A stretch of DNA of 64,000 bases from Fibrobacterota bacterium (GTDB lineage Bacteria > Fibrobacterota > Chitinivibrionia > Chitinivibrionales > Chitinivibrionaceae): NCBI GenBank assembly GCA_051745065.1, contig JBNJDQ010000001.1, positions 4,816 to 68,815 on the forward strand. The letters run 5' to 3'. Below the pieces are notes generated by a model. It had not been told where the DNA came from, searched no databases, and saw nothing but the letters and a program-made list of their open reading frames with translations. Shown here in pieces: positions 28,079 through 35,984 of the stretch (position 1 is the stretch's first letter; every line of letters begins with the position of its first letter). A program made the translations under genes and the position numbers.

Positions 28079-29110
28079 TTATTTGTCACGATTCCTTGCT
28101 GCAAGCTGACCACATGCGCCTTCGATATCCTCACCGCCGCTGATACGGATTGTTGCTGTAAGACCATGTTTTTCAAGATAAAACCTGAATGACTGAATAC
28201 GTTCGTGGGGAGGGCTTGCAAGAGATGAATCACTGCAGCTGTTTAAGGGAATGAGATTCACTTTGAAAGGACCGCCCTGTAAAAGTGAAACAACCTCTGA
28301 TGCATTTTGCATCGAATCAGTCTTTCCATGAATAAGAACATACTCAAATGTTACGGAACGCCCGCGAAAACGGGCATATTTCCGGGCAGCGGCAACAAGA
28401 TCTTCAAGGGGATACTGCTGGTTGATGGGCATCAGGGCGGAACGCTCCCGATCATTGGAAGCATTCAGGGATATGGCCAGTTCAACATCAATCTTCTCCT
28501 GGATAAGACGGGTGATACCCGGTACATAGCCCGCCGTAGACACAGTGATTCTGCGCCGCCCTATGGCAAATGCAGAGTCCTGGCTGAAGCCCCTGAGAGC
28601 CTGGCGAAATGCATCGAAATTGAGAAGGGCCTCCCCCATACCCATAAACACGATATTGGTAATGCGTTGTTCGGGTATATCTGCCTGAACAGCAGCGGCC
28701 TGCGCGAGAATCTCACCGGCACTCAGATTACGGACAAATCCCATACGTCCGGTTTCGCAGAAAACACACCCCAAAGAGCAGCCGATCTGTGAAGACACAC
28801 ACAGAGTGTTTCGTGCCTGCTTTCTCAGAAGAACCGCCTCATACAAATGGCCTTCATCGCTTTTAAAAAGATACTTCCGCGTTCTGTCTTGAGGCGACTC
28901 CCGGCGTGAAACGACCTGCGCCGGAAAAAAAGCAATCCGCTCAGCCAGTGCGTATCGCAGAGCACGGGGAATATTGCGCATTTCTTCGAAAGAGGAAACA
29001 CGTTTTTTATAGGCCCATTCCAGAATCTGTGTACTGCGGAATTTTTTTTCTCCCATGCTGGCAATCAGGTCTTTCAGCTCGGATGGGGTGAAGTCAAAAA
29101 ATGATTTCAT
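28079..29110 (-). CDS. rlmN: RlmN-family radical SAM RNA methyltransferase
   Basis: LCVSSQIGCSLGCVFC, FMGMGEAL, TFEYVL and GACGQL; both catalytic cysteines present. Confidence 0.85.
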   Translation of the reverse strand: MKSFFDFTPSELKDLIASMGEKKFRSTQILEWAYKKRVSSFEEMRNIPRALRYALAERIAFFPAQVVSRRESPQDRTRKYLFKSDEGHLYEAVLLRKQARNTLCVSSQIGCSLGCVFCETGRMGFVRNLSAGEILAQAAAVQADIPEQRITNIVFMGMGEALLNFDAFRQALRGFSQDSAFAIGRRRITVSTAGYVPGITRLIQEKIDVELAISLNASNDRERSALMPINQQYPLEDLVAAARKYARFRGRSVTFEYVLIHGKTDSMQNASEVVSLLQGGPFKVNLIPLNSCSDSSLASPPHERIQSFRFYLEKHGLTATIRISGGEDIEGACGQLAARNRDK

Positions 29111-29126: not shown

Positions 29127-29154
29127 AAAAAAGGCCTCTCCGAAGAGAGGCCTT
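29127..29154 (-). terminator. Intrinsic terminator of the tpiA-secG-tRNA unit
   Basis: AAGGCCTCTC-CGAA-GAGAGGCCTT stem with a T run on the minus strand. Confidence 0.85.
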
Positions 29155-29157
29155 GTA

Positions 29158-29245
29158 TGGTGCGGCCGGCCGGAGTTGAACCGGCACAGAGTTAACCTCC
29201 ACAAGATCCTTAATCTTGCGCGTCTACCAATTCCGCCACGGCCGC
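29158..29245 (-). tRNA. tRNA-Leu, anticodon AAG (class II, encoded CCA)
   Basis: Acceptor stem GCGGCCG/CGGCCGC-A-CCA; D-arm TGGCGGAATTGGTAGACGC; anticodon stem CAAGA/TCTTG with loop TT-AAG-GA (anticodon at 29211-29209); long variable arm; T-arm GCCGG-TTCAACT-CCGGC. Confidence 0.93.
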
Positions 29246-29254
29246 AATAGTATT

Positions 29255-29707
29255 TTATTCAGCATTATCACCGGAACCGGGAAGATCTTTCACTTCCGGA
29301 ACAACAGGCTCAGAGGGATCCTCTGACTGATTGTCCGCATCATCAGTTTCTTCGGCGGCACCTTCAAGATCTTCCGGAGTGACAGTTCCCATGGAAGAAC
29401 CGGACTGTTCCGGAGCATTTTGCTCAGAAGAAGATTCGATTTCAGTATCGAGTATCCCCTTTGAAGTGCTGCTGCTTGAAGACATTACAAAGAGCGTCAA
29501 AGCGAGCATAAAATATATTATGGCAAGAAAAGTAGTGCCTTTTGTTAAAATATTTTCTGTATTTTGTGCTCCAATGGCTGAATTTGCACCACTCAGACCA
29601 CCGCCCACGGCTCCGGAAATACCACCCCCGGTATCCGACTGAACCAACACAAAAAGGCCCAGAAGCAAACATACAATTACAAAAACCACTATTAAAAAAC
29701 CAAACAT
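29255..29707 (-). CDS. secG: Preprotein translocase subunit SecG (with acidic tail)
   Basis: Two TM helices, LVQSDTGGGISGAVGGG and ENILTKGT; classic tpiA-secG-tRNA-Leu order. Confidence 0.9.
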   Translation of the reverse strand: MFGFLIVVFVIVCLLLGLFVLVQSDTGGGISGAVGGGLSGANSAIGAQNTENILTKGTTFLAIIYFMLALTLFVMSSSSSTSKGILDTEIESSSEQNAPEQSGSSMGTVTPEDLEGAAEETDDADNQSEDPSEPVVPEVKDLPGSGDNAE

Positions 29708-29724: not shown

Positions 29725-30480
29725 TTATCGGGGAGAAACAACACCCTTAAAAAGATCTGCCTTAAGGGACGCACCACCAATGAGACCACCGTCAATATCA
29801 TTCTGCGCAAGAAGCTCTTTCGCATTGGCAGGTTTCATACTGCCGCCGTACTGAAGCCGCACCTTTTCAGCGGTATCTGCGTCGTACATTTCTGCAACAA
29901 GGCTGCGGATTTTTCCGTGAACCTCCTGTGCCATTTCAGGGGTAGCCGTTTTACCGGTACCAATTGCCCACACAGGCTCATAGGCGATGGTCGTATTTTG
30001 GAGATCCGCTGCACTGACACCATCAAGGGCGCCGTTTATCTGGGATTCAACAACAGTGTCCGTAACATTGGACTCGCGCTGCTCAAGGGTTTCACCTACA
30101 CAGAGAATGGGCTTAAGGCCATTGGCCAGAACTGCCTTCATCTTCCTGTTTACTGTTTCATCGGTCTCATGGAAATATGTACGCTGCTCGGAATGTCCAA
30201 GAATAACGTATTCCACACCGGCACTCTGCAGCATTGCACAGGAAACCTTCCCGGTAAACGCACCGGATTCCTCCCAGTGAACATCCTGAGCACCGAGTTT
30301 AATCGGCGTACCATCGAGAACACGGGCAACTTCGGTCAGGGATGTATAGGGCACACAAATTGCCACATCAACACCGGTTACACCGTCAAGCTCTTTTACG
30401 ACGTCCGACGCAAGCTCCACGGATTCCGAAACGGTTTTATTCATTTTCCAGTTACCGGCAATAAAGGGTTTTCTCGACAT
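29725..30480 (-). CDS. tpiA: Triosephosphate isomerase
   Basis: IAGNWKMNK, ILGHSEQR, AYEPVWAIGTG, YGGSMKP and LIGGASL motifs. Confidence 0.97.
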   Translation of the reverse strand: MSRKPFIAGNWKMNKTVSESVELASDVVKELDGVTGVDVAICVPYTSLTEVARVLDGTPIKLGAQDVHWEESGAFTGKVSCAMLQSAGVEYVILGHSEQRTYFHETDETVNRKMKAVLANGLKPILCVGETLEQRESNVTDTVVESQINGALDGVSAADLQNTTIAYEPVWAIGTGKTATPEMAQEVHGKIRSLVAEMYDADTAEKVRLQYGGSMKPANAKELLAQNDIDGGLIGGASLKADLFKGVVSPR

Positions 30481-30540: not shown

Positions 30541-31788
30541 TCAACTCTTTTTTTCCGGCCCGTCTCCTTTTACAACCAGGAGAAAAAAGACACCGAGAAC
30601 GAGAGTGGCCCATGTCCCCCATTCAAGCAGAGTCTGTGCGCCGCGCAGTTCAATAATCCGCCCGCTTGCCCATCCGGCAAATGAACCGGCAATAACAGAA
30701 CGTACAACCGTAGTTACCCCCATGTACGTGGCGCGCATTTTCGGGTTGGCACTGCGGTCAACAAAGTCAATCAGCGCGAGGAAATACATGCCGAAAGCCG
30801 GACCGTGAATCAGTACCGCCGCAAATTTCATCCAGAACGGTGTCTCAGCCGTAAAAAGAGAGAAAAGAAAGAGCTTCACTGCAGTCAGAGCAAGGCCGAT
30901 CACCATAAGCCAGCGATTTCCGAAAAAGGCAATCAGTTTTTTGGAGAAATGCATCACCGGAAACTCAAGTGTTGTCCAGAATCCAAACATCAGTCCCAGT
31001 TCGAGGGGGGATGCGGTAACATCGTCCAGATAAAACCCAACATACTGCATACCGATGCCATTATTGATGGCACCGGCACCGAAAACAAAAATCAGAAACA
31101 GGAAAAAACGCCGGTCATGAAAGAGCTTTTCCCAGGGGATTTTAATCGCCCTGGGCTTCGCTTCGCTTTGAGAGAATAGTGAAAGTATTGAAAAGAGCAG
31201 AAGCGAAACCGCCCCCACGTAAAATATATAGGAATACCTCACCCCTCCGTCCGGATTGGGAGCAAATGTCAGCAGGGCCCCCACAAAAACGGTAATAATT
31301 GCCCAGCCGAAAGTCCCCCATATCCGGTACTGGCCGAAGAGTGTCCGATCCCGGTTGCGATTCAGAAATCCGAGGGTTTCAGAATCGAGAAGTGTGTTAA
31401 CCGGTTTTGAGAAAAAGTTATGCACAAGAAAAAACAATGCAGCGTAAAAGAAACGCACATCCACATTTTTCTCCATAAAGAACGGTTCTCCCGTAACGCC
31501 GACCATAACAGCCGGTATGACAGCACATATACTGAGAACCGTAACAATCCGCCGGCCGAGACGGAAGGAATCGGAGATGACCCCCGTGACAATATTTGCA
31601 AAAAACACCACCAGCGGTACCGCAGCCATAATAAACTGAATTTTTCCCATCTGCGGTTCACCATTCGTATCCACAAGCACTTTCTTAAAAAACACCGATG
31701 CAAAGGGCCCCACGGCTCCCATGGCAAAGAAAAGCACAAGATACATCTGCTTGAGAATCCGCGATTCCCGCTGAACTGCTTTATCCAT
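30541..31788 (-). CDS. MFS transporter (nucleoside/oligosaccharide:H+ symporter-like)
   Basis: About 12 hydrophobic helices; FGQYRIWGTFGW motif. Start at 31788 overlaps the upstream stop. Confidence 0.8.
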   Translation of the reverse strand: MDKAVQRESRILKQMYLVLFFAMGAVGPFASVFFKKVLVDTNGEPQMGKIQFIMAAVPLVVFFANIVTGVISDSFRLGRRIVTVLSICAVIPAVMVGVTGEPFFMEKNVDVRFFYAALFFLVHNFFSKPVNTLLDSETLGFLNRNRDRTLFGQYRIWGTFGWAIITVFVGALLTFAPNPDGGVRYSYIFYVGAVSLLLFSILSLFSQSEAKPRAIKIPWEKLFHDRRFFLFLIFVFGAGAINNGIGMQYVGFYLDDVTASPLELGLMFGFWTTLEFPVMHFSKKLIAFFGNRWLMVIGLALTAVKLFLFSLFTAETPFWMKFAAVLIHGPAFGMYFLALIDFVDRSANPKMRATYMGVTTVVRSVIAGSFAGWASGRIIELRGAQTLLEWGTWATLVLGVFFLLVVKGDGPEKKS

Positions 31789-32818
31789 TCTGTATTCCAT
31801 CCTTTGTTGCAAGTTGGCCGCAGGCCGCTCTCAGTTTATCCCCCCGGGATTCCCGGACAAACGCCCTCAGTCCCAGCTCTTCGAGCATGCGACGGAAGGC
31901 ATACATGCTTTCCCGGCCCACAGAACGAAATGTTCCTTCTCTGCCATTATAGCTGAGGATATTTACCCTGCAGGGAATCCCTGCCAGATACTGAGCCAAA
32001 GCGCCGGCATCACCAGCACTGTCATTGATCCCTTTGAAGAGCGTATATTCGATCAAAAAGAGCTCACGTTTTTTTAAAGGGGCATTCTGCATAAAGGAGC
32101 GGAGATCCTTTAGAGAATTGGTTCCGGTGATGGGCATAATACGACGGCGTACACCGGGGTCAACACTGTGCAGGGACAGGGCAATGCGGAGGTTGCAGAA
32201 GCCTTCATTCATGAGACGCCGCAGATTGTCAATGCGCCCTGCCGTGGAGACAGTAACCGATGAAGGCTGAATATCAAAGCCCTGTTGCTGCTGAAGTACC
32301 CGCAGGGACTGCACCAGCACATCGTAATTATCAAGGGGCTCGCCCATGCCCATAAACACAACACTGTCTACGTTTGAGGCAAGTATAAAACGGGCGGCAT
32401 ACACCTGCCACAGCACCTCGGACACGGAAAGATTGCGAACAAACCCCATGTCACCGGTGGCACAAAAGGCACATGCCCGCGCGCAGCCGACCTGTGTTGA
32501 AATACAGAGGGATTTACGCCGTCCGTAATCAATAAGGACGCTCTCAACAGAAGCCCCATCAGCCAGGCGGGAAGTAAATTTTTGTACTGAATCCCCCTGC
32601 TGACATGACTCCACAGAGATTTCAGGAAGAATGCACTCATCACGAAACCCTCTGAGGAGATGGCCGTTTTCCGTAAAGGCACGGGTCCACTCAATATCAG
32701 ATAAATTATTCTGAAAAAAAGACCGGTACCATGCGTCACTGTACCATGGCCCTTTATTGATTCGCTCTTTCACAGCCACGCGGAAGTCCTCCAGAGTGCA
32801 TGAAAGGATATCAATCAT
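31781..32818 (-). CDS. Second RlmN-family radical SAM methyltransferase
   Basis: LCISTQVGCARACAFC, FMGMGEPLDN, LSLHS, IEYTL and AACGQL motifs. Confidence 0.85.
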   Translation of the reverse strand: MIDILSCTLEDFRVAVKERINKGPWYSDAWYRSFFQNNLSDIEWTRAFTENGHLLRGFRDECILPEISVESCQQGDSVQKFTSRLADGASVESVLIDYGRRKSLCISTQVGCARACAFCATGDMGFVRNLSVSEVLWQVYAARFILASNVDSVVFMGMGEPLDNYDVLVQSLRVLQQQQGFDIQPSSVTVSTAGRIDNLRRLMNEGFCNLRIALSLHSVDPGVRRRIMPITGTNSLKDLRSFMQNAPLKKRELFLIEYTLFKGINDSAGDAGALAQYLAGIPCRVNILSYNGREGTFRSVGRESMYAFRRMLEELGLRAFVRESRGDKLRAACGQLATKDGIQNG

Positions 32819-32834
32819 GCTGCATGCCCCCAAC

Positions 32835-32856
32835 AAAAAAGCGGCCCGCAAGCCGC
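32835..32856 (-). terminator. Terminator-like hairpin after nagB
   Basis: Minus strand GCGGCT-TGCG-GGCCGC-TTTTTT. Confidence 0.65.
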
Positions 32857-32865
32857 CCTGAAACA

Positions 32866-33651
32866 TTATCGAAAATCTTCCCACTCCGGCTCGTTATTAA
32901 AAATCCAGTCATAGTAATCACGCATTCGCAGATACTTCGCGGCAGCCTCGTCAACAACAATGGTGCAGCGTTTATGCAGCTGCAATGCCGACGCAGTCAC
33001 TATGGAAGTCAGGGGTCCTTCAACGGCCTTTGCTATGATCTCAGCCTTGCTTTCCCCCGTTGCAAGAAGTACCGCCCGCTTACTTTTCAGGATAGTATCA
33101 ACCCCCATGGTAATAGCACGGCGGGGCATCATCTCCGGCTTGGGAAAAAGGGGACTGTTCTGAGCGATTGTTTCCGGATTCAATGCCTTCACACGTGTCA
33201 GGGAACGAAGGGCGGAAAGGGGCTCGTTAAAACCGATATGTCCGGAACTGCCGATCCCCAGAAGTTGAAAATCAATACCTCCGGCACCGCGGATTGCCGC
33301 CTCATACATGCGGCACTCTTCTTCCAGATTTTCCGCCATACCGTTGGGTATATGAGTTTTTGACTTGTCAATATTGACACGATCAAAAAGATGGTGATTC
33401 ATATAAGAACGATATGAATTGGTATCACTGGGTTCAATTCCGACATATTCATCAAGGTTAAAGGAGCTTACAAGGGAAAAATCAATCTCGCCGCTTTCAT
33501 ACTTATGAACGAGATTGTCATACACGGCCTCCATGGTCCGACCTGTTGCAAGGCCCAGCACACTGGTCGGATCCTCACTGATCTGCTTAACAACAAGGCG
33601 GGCAACCAGTTCGGTTGCCGCGTCCTTGTCTTTTCGTATAATGACTTCCAT
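32866..33651 (-). CDS. nagB: Glucosamine-6-phosphate deaminase
   Basis: LGLATGRT, FNLDEYVG, LGIGSSGHIGFNEP, AITMGV and SALQLH motifs. Confidence 0.95.
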   Translation of the reverse strand: MEVIIRKDKDAATELVARLVVKQISEDPTSVLGLATGRTMEAVYDNLVHKYESGEIDFSLVSSFNLDEYVGIEPSDTNSYRSYMNHHLFDRVNIDKSKTHIPNGMAENLEEECRMYEAAIRGAGGIDFQLLGIGSSGHIGFNEPLSALRSLTRVKALNPETIAQNSPLFPKPEMMPRRAITMGVDTILKSKRAVLLATGESKAEIIAKAVEGPLTSIVTASALQLHKRCTIVVDEAAAKYLRMRDYYDWIFNNEPEWEDFR

Positions 33652-34847: not shown

Positions 34848-35984
34848 TTAACGCTGTGCAGCGTATTTCTTAACAACGTCGATTGTAGTCTGAACTTCTT
34901 CATCAGTAAGCTCAGGTACAAGGGGAAGAGTAATGCAGGAGTCTGCATTGGCTTCCGCATTGGGAAGGGGACCATCAACACGTGCATCCTTACCCCAGGG
35001 GAATCCATCCTGACGGTGGATTGCAATAGAGTAGTGAGTCTTGGCTTCAACACCGTTTTCGTGAAGGAAGTTAAGGAACGTATCACGCTCGGAGGGATCA
35101 AGAGTCTCAACTACGTAGCAATGGAACACATGACGGTATCCGGCAGGTACGTAGGGAAGACGAAGCCATCCCTTGGCAGCATCAGCAAGCTCGCTGTTGT
35201 ACTTATTACCGATTTCGATACGCTTATCAGTGAACTCACCGATTTTCTTAAGTTTAACAGAAAGGATAGCCGCGTGAATATCATCCAGACGGCTGTTGAA
35301 ACCGTATGAGTGAACATTACGGGCACCGGAACCGTGGTTACGAAGCTTACGTACACGGTCATTGATGAACTTGTGATCAGTAAAGATCGCACCGGCATCA
35401 CCATATGTACCAAGGTTTTTCTGAGTGATAAAGGACGTACAAACAGCGTCAGAAAGCTCACCCTGCTTAAACGTATCACCGTGACCGTCGATTGCCTGAG
35501 CGTTATCTTCGATTACGTAAAGACCGTACTCATCAGCGATTTCGCGGATAGCCTTCATATCTACAGTCAGGCCATAGAGATGAACAGGAACAATCGCACG
35601 GGTCTTATGAGTAATTGCCTTTTTAACTGCTTTGGGATCGATATTACGTGTTTCGGGATCACAGTCAACGAGAACTGCAGTTGCACCGGCAATCCACATA
35701 GCTTCGGCAGTTGCGAAGAAGGTGTTGGCGTTTGTGATCATTTCGTCACCTTTACCAAGACCAAGAGCCATGAAAGTCAGCCAGAGAGCATCAGTACCGT
35801 TACCAACACCGATGGCATATTCAGTACCCATGTACTCTTTCAGCTCTTCTTCGAACTTTGCAAGAGCAGGCCCCTGAACATACTTACCGCTCTGGAATAC
35901 TTCTTCCATAGCAGCTGTCAGTTCGGGTTTCAGGTTTTCATACTGACGCTGGTGCGTATAAAATGGAACTTTCCAATCAGCCAT
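34848..35984 (-). CDS. DegT/DnrJ/EryC1/StrS-family PLP sugar aminotransferase
   Basis: VGNGTDAL, VPVHLYG, IEDNAQA, SFITQKNLGTYGDAG (PLP Lys), NSRLDDIHAA and ITLPL motifs. Confidence 0.9.
   Translation of the reverse strand: MADWKVPFYTHQRQYENLKPELTAAMEEVFQSGKYVQGPALAKFEEELKEYMGTEYAIGVGNGTDALWLTFMALGLGKGDEMITNANTFFATAEAMWIAGATAVLVDCDPETRNIDPKAVKKAITHKTRAIVPVHLYGLTVDMKAIREIADEYGLYVIEDNAQAIDGHGDTFKQGELSDAVCTSFITQKNLGTYGDAGAIFTDHKFINDRVRKLRNHGSGARNVHSYGFNSRLDDIHAAILSVKLKKIGEFTDKRIEIGNKYNSELADAAKGWLRLPYVPAGYRHVFHCYVVETLDPSERDTFLNFLHENGVEAKTHYSIAIHRQDGFPWGKDARVDGPLPNAEANADSCITLPLVPELTDEEVQTTIDVVKKYAAQR

Follow-up and report, generated by a model that had tools for sequence, protein, structure and literature searches.

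A tRNA-Leu(AAG), probably edited to inosine at position 34, replaces tRNA-Leu(GAG) in a clade of the Fibrobacterota

The replacement of tRNA-Leu(GAG) by a tRNA-Leu(AAG) that TadA edits to IAG has been described in Oenococcus and Streptococcus, and is a clade-wide feature of the Lactobacillales (PMC8072771, PMC11472039, PMC13249217). Bacterial Leu(AAG) genes deposited in GtRNAdb come almost entirely from Bacilli, with further cases in Mycoplasma and Prochlorococcus (PMC13249217), which agrees with the statement in the initial annotation of the locus studied here that these tRNAs are known mainly from some Firmicutes. An A+T content of 60–70% is reported for the genera in which A34 tRNAs have become fixed (bioRxiv 10.64898/2026.05.15.725136). 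The TadA of S. pyogenes, with consensus YUAMGRA, edits both Arg(ACG) and Leu(AAG); that of E. coli edits only Arg(ACG), and not the Leu(AAG) of S. pyogenes (PMC11472039). Binding of the anticodon stem-loop requires the C-terminal helix of TadA, with contacts limited to nucleosides 32–38 (PMC8216470). In our literature search, we found no paper tying Chitinivibrio or the Fibrobacterota to tRNA-Leu(AAG).

The window analysed here, that is, the whole 64-kb stretch of DNA, belongs to a soda-lake-type species of Chitinivibrio (Fibrobacterota, class Chitinivibrionia). The only tRNA gene that ARAGORN identifies in it is a tRNA-Leu(aag), at 29158–29245 on the minus strand, and the features of the locus are as follows:

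29158–29245, minus strand: tRNA-Leu(AAG) gene, type II, with a long variable arm, A73 and an encoded CCA (ARAGORN, Rfam RF00005 and the sequence itself)
29207–29213, minus strand: anticodon loop, U32 U33 A34 A35 G36 G37 A38 (read from the sequence)
29131–29154, minus strand: intrinsic terminator directly 3' of the tRNA, a 10-bp stem with 6 G-C pairs followed by a T run
29255–29707, minus strand: secG, 150 aa (TIGR00810, 47.1 bits)
29725–30480, minus strand: tpiA, coding for triose-phosphate isomerase, which opens the tpiA-secG-tRNA-Leu run (TIGR00419, 224 bits)
28079–29110, minus strand: rlmN, the next gene past the terminator, given for context and with no part in the mechanism (TIGR00048, 373 bits)

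The Rfam tRNA model spans the gene from end to end and scores 56.4 bits, well over its gathering score of 29, and the sequence and the covariance-model alignment show all the features of a type-II tRNA-Leu, namely the long variable arm, A73, and G37 after G36. As initially annotated, the anticodon is AAG, because the loop UUAAGGA (29213–29207) lies between the stem halves CAAGA (29218–29214) and UCUUG (29206–29202) of the minus strand, and ARAGORN gives the same anticodon. The assignment of A34 to base 29211 is likewise right when the minus strand is read, with U33 at 29212, A35 at 29210, G36 at 29209, G37 at 29208 and A38 at 29207. The tRNA starts 9 nt after the stop codon of secG, in the same orientation, and appears to be expressed as the last gene of a tpiA-secG-tRNA unit.

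Two neighbours of the tRNA have features of their own. The SecG model, of 73 positions, matches only residues 4–75 of the SecG in the window, which leaves the C-terminal half as an unexplained extension. There are also two genes of the RlmN family of radical SAM proteins within 4 kb, at 28079–29110 and 31781–32884, both on the minus strand; the second scores 234 bits, under the RlmN cut-off of 290, and shows weak matches to the Cfr family too. RlmN makes m2A37 in tRNAs, including Arg(ICG) of E. coli.

The assembly of the window genome (2.43 Mb in 196 contigs, 51% G+C, 96% complete) contains 43 tRNA genes, with leucine tRNAs AAG, UAG, CAA and UAA. The initial annotation had called for a search for a separate Leu(GAG); none is present among the 43 tRNAs, nor did we find one anywhere in this 96%-complete assembly. 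The only other A34 tRNA is Arg(ACG), present in two copies. We did not find Leu(CAG) in the assembly either, although CTG makes up 40% of the leucine codons; this is probably an assembly gap, because both congeners (G001 and G002) and further relatives carry Leu(CAG).

We then searched all 81 genomes of the order with a pattern made up of the D arm and the anticodon arm. Being fixed, this pattern may miss some loops; it found AAG in 11 genomes, GAG in 63, both in none and neither in 7. ARAGORN runs on the fetched loci were consistent with these counts, which are distributed by family as follows:

Family f1: AAG in the window genome and 6 of 7 others; GAG in 0
Family f2: AAG in 3 of 4; GAG in 0
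Family f7: AAG in 1 of 1; GAG in 0
Family f3: AAG in 0; GAG in 7 of 8
Family f4: AAG in 0; GAG in 4 of 4
Family f5: AAG in 0; GAG in 7 of 7
Family f6: AAG in 0; GAG in 43 of 46
Family f9: AAG in 0; GAG in 2 of 2

Within the order, AAG is thus limited to families f1, f2 and f7, whose two genomes without any match are only 68–69% complete. One of the AAG genomes, G001, is of the same genus as the window genome, and its TadA has exactly the sequence recorded at NCBI for Chitinivibrio alkaliphilus; this cultured species has tRNA-Leu(AAG). In a tree of RpoB plus RpoC from 41 genomes, the three families form one clade (SH-aLRT 100), with the GAG families f4 and f9 as its sister, so that the pattern is explained by a single change from G34 to A34 at the root of this clade. 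The AAG state is old and has been kept stably, as RpoB identity between the families of the clade is only about 64%. The slot downstream of secG holds tRNA-Leu(GAG) in the sister families and in other Fibrobacterota, which bears out the earlier statement that this is its normal occupant, and the synteny tpiA-secG-Leu(GAG) is found in loci of Fibrobacteria, KSB1 and Latescibacterota.

Several genomes of the order show peculiarities around these genes. Three f1 genomes carry tandem duplicates of tRNA-Leu(AAG), 100–135 bp apart (G003:C620, G004:C3 and G007:C6). The sole f7 genome, G013, has its AAG tRNA on a 6-kb contig, and this MAG may be mixed, because two rpoB pieces, on contigs C645 and C320, cover the same region. 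In four GAG-type genomes of family f5, tadA is located ca. 4.5–5 kb from tRNA-Leu(GAG) on the same contig (G025:C72, G011:C1, G030:C1 and G036:C9); this linkage is absent from the window genome, with the tRNA on contig C1 and tadA on C65.

Extending the search to 296 genomes from the whole of the Fibrobacterota, we found one further AAG case outside the order, in genome G242 from another order (G242:C323, locus L193:8995-9079). G242 is sister to G250 in the RpoB plus RpoC tree, with a support of 99, and four of the five other genomes of its family contain GAG. Mis-binning of the contig with the AAG gene was considered and ruled out by three observations: its G+C content (40%) matches that of the rpoB contig of G242 (39%); its tpiA is divergent, with an identity of 65–68% at most to any copy from Chitinivibrionales; and the synteny is native, with ORFs of 334 and 398 aa (the sizes of gap and pgk), tpiA, a secG-sized ORF and the tRNA. 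G242 thus represents a second, independent G34-to-A34 switch.

The anticodon loop changed at a second position. The loop is UUGAGGG in each of the 65 GAG genes that the pattern matched within the order and in all four of the family of G242; the GAG loop of other orders is UUGAGGU. Position 38 is A in 13 of the 14 AAG gene copies of the order, the one gene that keeps G38 being that of G013 (family f7). The AAG loops are UUAAGGA, with CUAAGGA in G003 and CUAAGAA in G007, and that of G242 is again UUAAGGA; the change from G38 to A38 therefore accompanied that from G34 to A34 in both origins. The loops UUAAGGA (that of the window tRNA), CUAAGGA and CUAAGAA all fit YUAMGRA exactly, the consensus of the Lactobacillales enzyme from S. 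pyogenes, and within the window genome the arm of Leu(AAG), ..GA-UUAAGGA-UC.., can be compared with that of Arg(ACG), ..GA-CUACGAA-UC... The Leu(AAG) loop of G007, CUAAGAA, differs from this Arg(ACG) loop, CUACGAA, at position 35 alone. Both tandem copies of G007 have A37, and have thus lost the G37 that is typical of CUN-reading leucine tRNAs. A38 could also tune the 32–38 pair for decoding, and not for the binding of TadA.

The window genome has one tadA, outside the window on contig C65. Its 172-aa product carries both the HAE and the PCxxC motif and scores 136.6 bits against NF008113, under the cut-off of 150 of that model; the nearest solved structures are the TadA of E. coli (1z3a, the best at 1e-34), of the Salmonella type and of S. 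aureus, and the best named relatives are C. alkaliphilus and MAGs labelled Chitinivibrionales or Chitinispirillales. The assignment of the window to Chitinivibrio comes from these TadA relatives and from the TadA of G001; the MAG contains no 16S gene, and TPI proved too conserved among its relatives for placement. tadA is single-copy in 75 of the 81 genomes of the order. Two candidate explanations for an extended specificity were discarded: a second TadA paralogue in the AAG genomes, as the search of the 81 genomes gave one match per genome; and a C-terminal extension like that proposed for S. pyogenes, which occurs in some f1 genomes and is absent from the window genome and from f2.

When TadA proteins of the AAG clade (13) and of GAG relatives (28) were compared, three alignment columns stood out, numbered by the protein's own positions:

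Position 120: S or N in the AAG clade; P in 23 of 28 GAG relatives
Position 157: I or V in 9 of 13 of the AAG clade; L in 28 of 28 GAG relatives
Position 158: Q in 12 of 13 of the AAG clade; mostly K, T or S in the GAG relatives, with Q in 4 of 28

In E. coli TadA the residue aligned with position 120 is A109; positions 157 and 158 sit in the C-terminal helix. The TadA of G242 has V157 and Q158, versus L and K/K/R in its three GAG kin, so that the second origin repeats the changes at 157 and 158 but not that at 120. We take the changes at 157 and 158 as a lead, not as proof, for an extended specificity, because there are only two origins, some GAG sisters also have Q158, and shared ancestry is a confounding factor. 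A minimal co-evolutionary path, in which each of the two switches required G38-to-A38 together with the same pair of changes in the TadA helix (L to I/V at 157 and K/R to Q at 158), is conceivable on these alignments, but we hold it only tentatively.

The initial annotation had also noted, as support for its reading, that CTT is frequent in highly expressed genes. The observation stands: the aminotransferase gene at 34848–35984 (minus strand) has 19 CTT versus 3 CTC, and among 28 genes of the str-S10-spc-alpha cluster CTT reaches 42% of the leucine codons (CTG 28%, CTC 17%, CTA 0.3%), versus 28% in 1,341 long ORFs (CTG 40%, CTC 23.5%, TTG 5%, TTA 2%, CTA 0.8%). As support, however, it fails, because the shift towards T is not specific to leucine: in ribosomal-protein genes it amounts to +0.16 for Leu and to +0.15 to +0.26 for Gly, Ala, Ser and Thr, whose boxes are read by G34 tRNAs, and the CTT preference in highly expressed genes is therefore not diagnostic. 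Moreover, the residual of CTT/(CTT+CTC) in the window genome, relative to the value predicted from the T/C usage of the other four-fold boxes, is 0.00. The mean CTT residual of AAG genomes is +0.09 and the standard deviation among GAG genomes 0.056 (37 genomes), and the only CTT excess that stands out is that of genus g3, of about +0.2. We consequently dropped codon usage as AAG-specific evidence.

What codon usage does bear on is the state of A34. For this, the initial annotation had proposed either a TadA with extended specificity, producing I34, or decoding by an unmodified A34; these are the right alternatives, and the evidence favours I34 without proving it. We consider it likely that TadA converts A34 to inosine in this CUY-reading tRNA-Leu, as in Lactobacillales. 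CUC is a major codon in a genome that has no G34 reader for it, which favours inosine, a good pairing partner of C, rather than unmodified A. The presence of TadA by itself proves nothing, because the E. coli enzyme rejects the Leu(AAG) of S. pyogenes.

If A34 were instead left unmodified, CUU would be read by Watson-Crick pairing, and CUC by a tolerated A-C wobble, by superwobble or by tRNA-Leu(UAG). We regard this as unlikely, although it stays alive because engineered A34 tRNAs of four-codon boxes work unmodified in E. coli, where they are neutral or beneficial (bioRxiv 10.64898/2026.05.15.725136). [quoted passage not shown] Against this, CUC accounts for 23.5% of all leucine codons and for 17% in ribosomal-protein genes, a heavy load of A-C pairs. 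The loop has also evolved repeatedly towards the TadA motif, gaining A38 in each of the two origins and becoming CUAAGAA in G007, which would be needless in an unedited tRNA; and, rather than an unusable TadA or an unrecognisable loop, we found a TadA together with a loop that matches its motif.

It is less probable still that editing is partial or dependent on conditions, such that a mixture of AAG and IAG tunes the rates of CUU and CUC decoding. The TadA-dependent editing of mRNA in S. pyogenes does vary with the condition, but both A34 tRNAs of this species are fully edited in every growth phase (PMC11472039); the G38 retained in G013 suggests an intermediate, poorer substrate, in favour of partial editing. 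An artefact of assembly or binning, or a dispensable or pseudogene copy, as might be feared from a draft genome of 196 contigs, has a negligible probability: assembly error is excluded because A34 recurs in 10 further genomes of the order, each assembled independently, including G001 with its TadA identical to that of C. alkaliphilus, none of the AAG genomes has a GAG copy, and the cloverleaf and the terminator are intact. The initial annotation had said that its reading would fall if reads showed GAG, or if the relatives all had GAG while an intact Leu(GAG) elsewhere made this copy dispensable or unexpressed; neither holds, as the relatives share AAG and a GAG copy exists in none of them.

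Returning to editing by TadA as the preferred reading, the data can be arranged into the following model. The G34-to-A34 change became fixed in an ancestral secG-linked tRNA-Leu(GAG) gene before three families of Chitinivibrionales diverged, among them that of the genus Chitinivibrio. AAG has been kept since then, in place of GAG, and is the functional leucine tRNA with which the lineage reads CUY. The tRNA would be transcribed with tpiA-secG, or just after them, with transcription stopping at its own terminator. The single TadA, which must necessarily already edit tRNA-Arg(ACG), would also deaminate A34 of tRNA-Leu(AAG) to inosine. What the genomes show directly is the gene with its conservation, its exclusive occurrence in place of GAG, a TadA, and a loop resembling that of TadA substrates; the deamination is the step that we infer. 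The mature tRNA, with anticodon IAG, would then read CUU and CUC, and CUA weakly, whereas tRNA-Leu(UAG) and tRNA-Leu(CAG) would serve CUA and CUG.

Bacterial TadA and eukaryotic ADAT are set apart by the expansion of wobble inosine to tRNAs other than tRNA-Arg, and experiments on this step have so far been confined to Lactobacillales. A deep clade in an unrelated phylum is an independent case, with a cultured member, C. alkaliphilus, a balanced base composition and heavy use of CUC, and with a younger second origin nearby in the same phylum. Such a case helps to tell the requirements of inosine editing of tRNA-Leu, A38 and the residues of the TadA helix, from traits that are particular to lactic acid bacteria or driven by A+T content. 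If the co-evolutionary path outlined above holds, the Fibrobacterota would have run one natural experiment twice, showing how TadA of a bacterium can acquire another tRNA as substrate, and this in a genome not rich in A+T; C. alkaliphilus would allow it to be tested. As a warning for annotation, Leu(AAG) in these genomes is not an error.

In all, what we describe is probably the rare decoding trick of lactic acid bacteria in a new phylum, with A34 edited to inosine. As in the Lactobacillales (Oenococcus oeni, Streptococcus pyogenes, S. mutans, Lactobacillus and Lactococcus), A34 replaces G34 and no genome combines the two; TadA is encoded once, the anticodon loop conforms to YUAMGRA, the trait is ancient and shared throughout the clade, and relatives of the window genome have the same set of five leucine tRNAs. 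Unlike them, Chitinivibrio belongs to the Fibrobacterota, class Chitinivibrionia, with 51% G+C and with CUG, not UUA, as the main leucine codon; the phylum shows two independent origins, each with G38-to-A38; and, whereas the tRNA is edited in Lactobacillales, here it is probably edited. In E. coli, tRNA-Leu(GAG) is encoded by leuU, downstream of secG. The slot and orientation are the same as in this secG-leuU arrangement, but the tRNA of Chitinivibrio has A34 and A38 instead of G34 and G38, and the 31–39 pair of family f1, as compared with leuU, is A-U, as in tRNA-Arg(ACG). The arm is similar to that of tRNA-Arg(ACG), the universal bacterial substrate that TadA converts to ICG, except that position 35 of Leu(AAG) is A and not C, which is unacceptable to a TadA of the E. 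coli type (PMC11472039). Finally, the A34 lies in a four-codon box, as in tRNA-Thr(AGU) of Mycoplasma, the Thr and Ser tRNAs of Oenococcus and the engineered ANN tRNAs of E. coli, in all of which A34 is unmodified; unlike those systems, the Chitinivibrio lineage has a TadA, a loop that mimics its substrate, and retained U34 and C34 isoacceptors.
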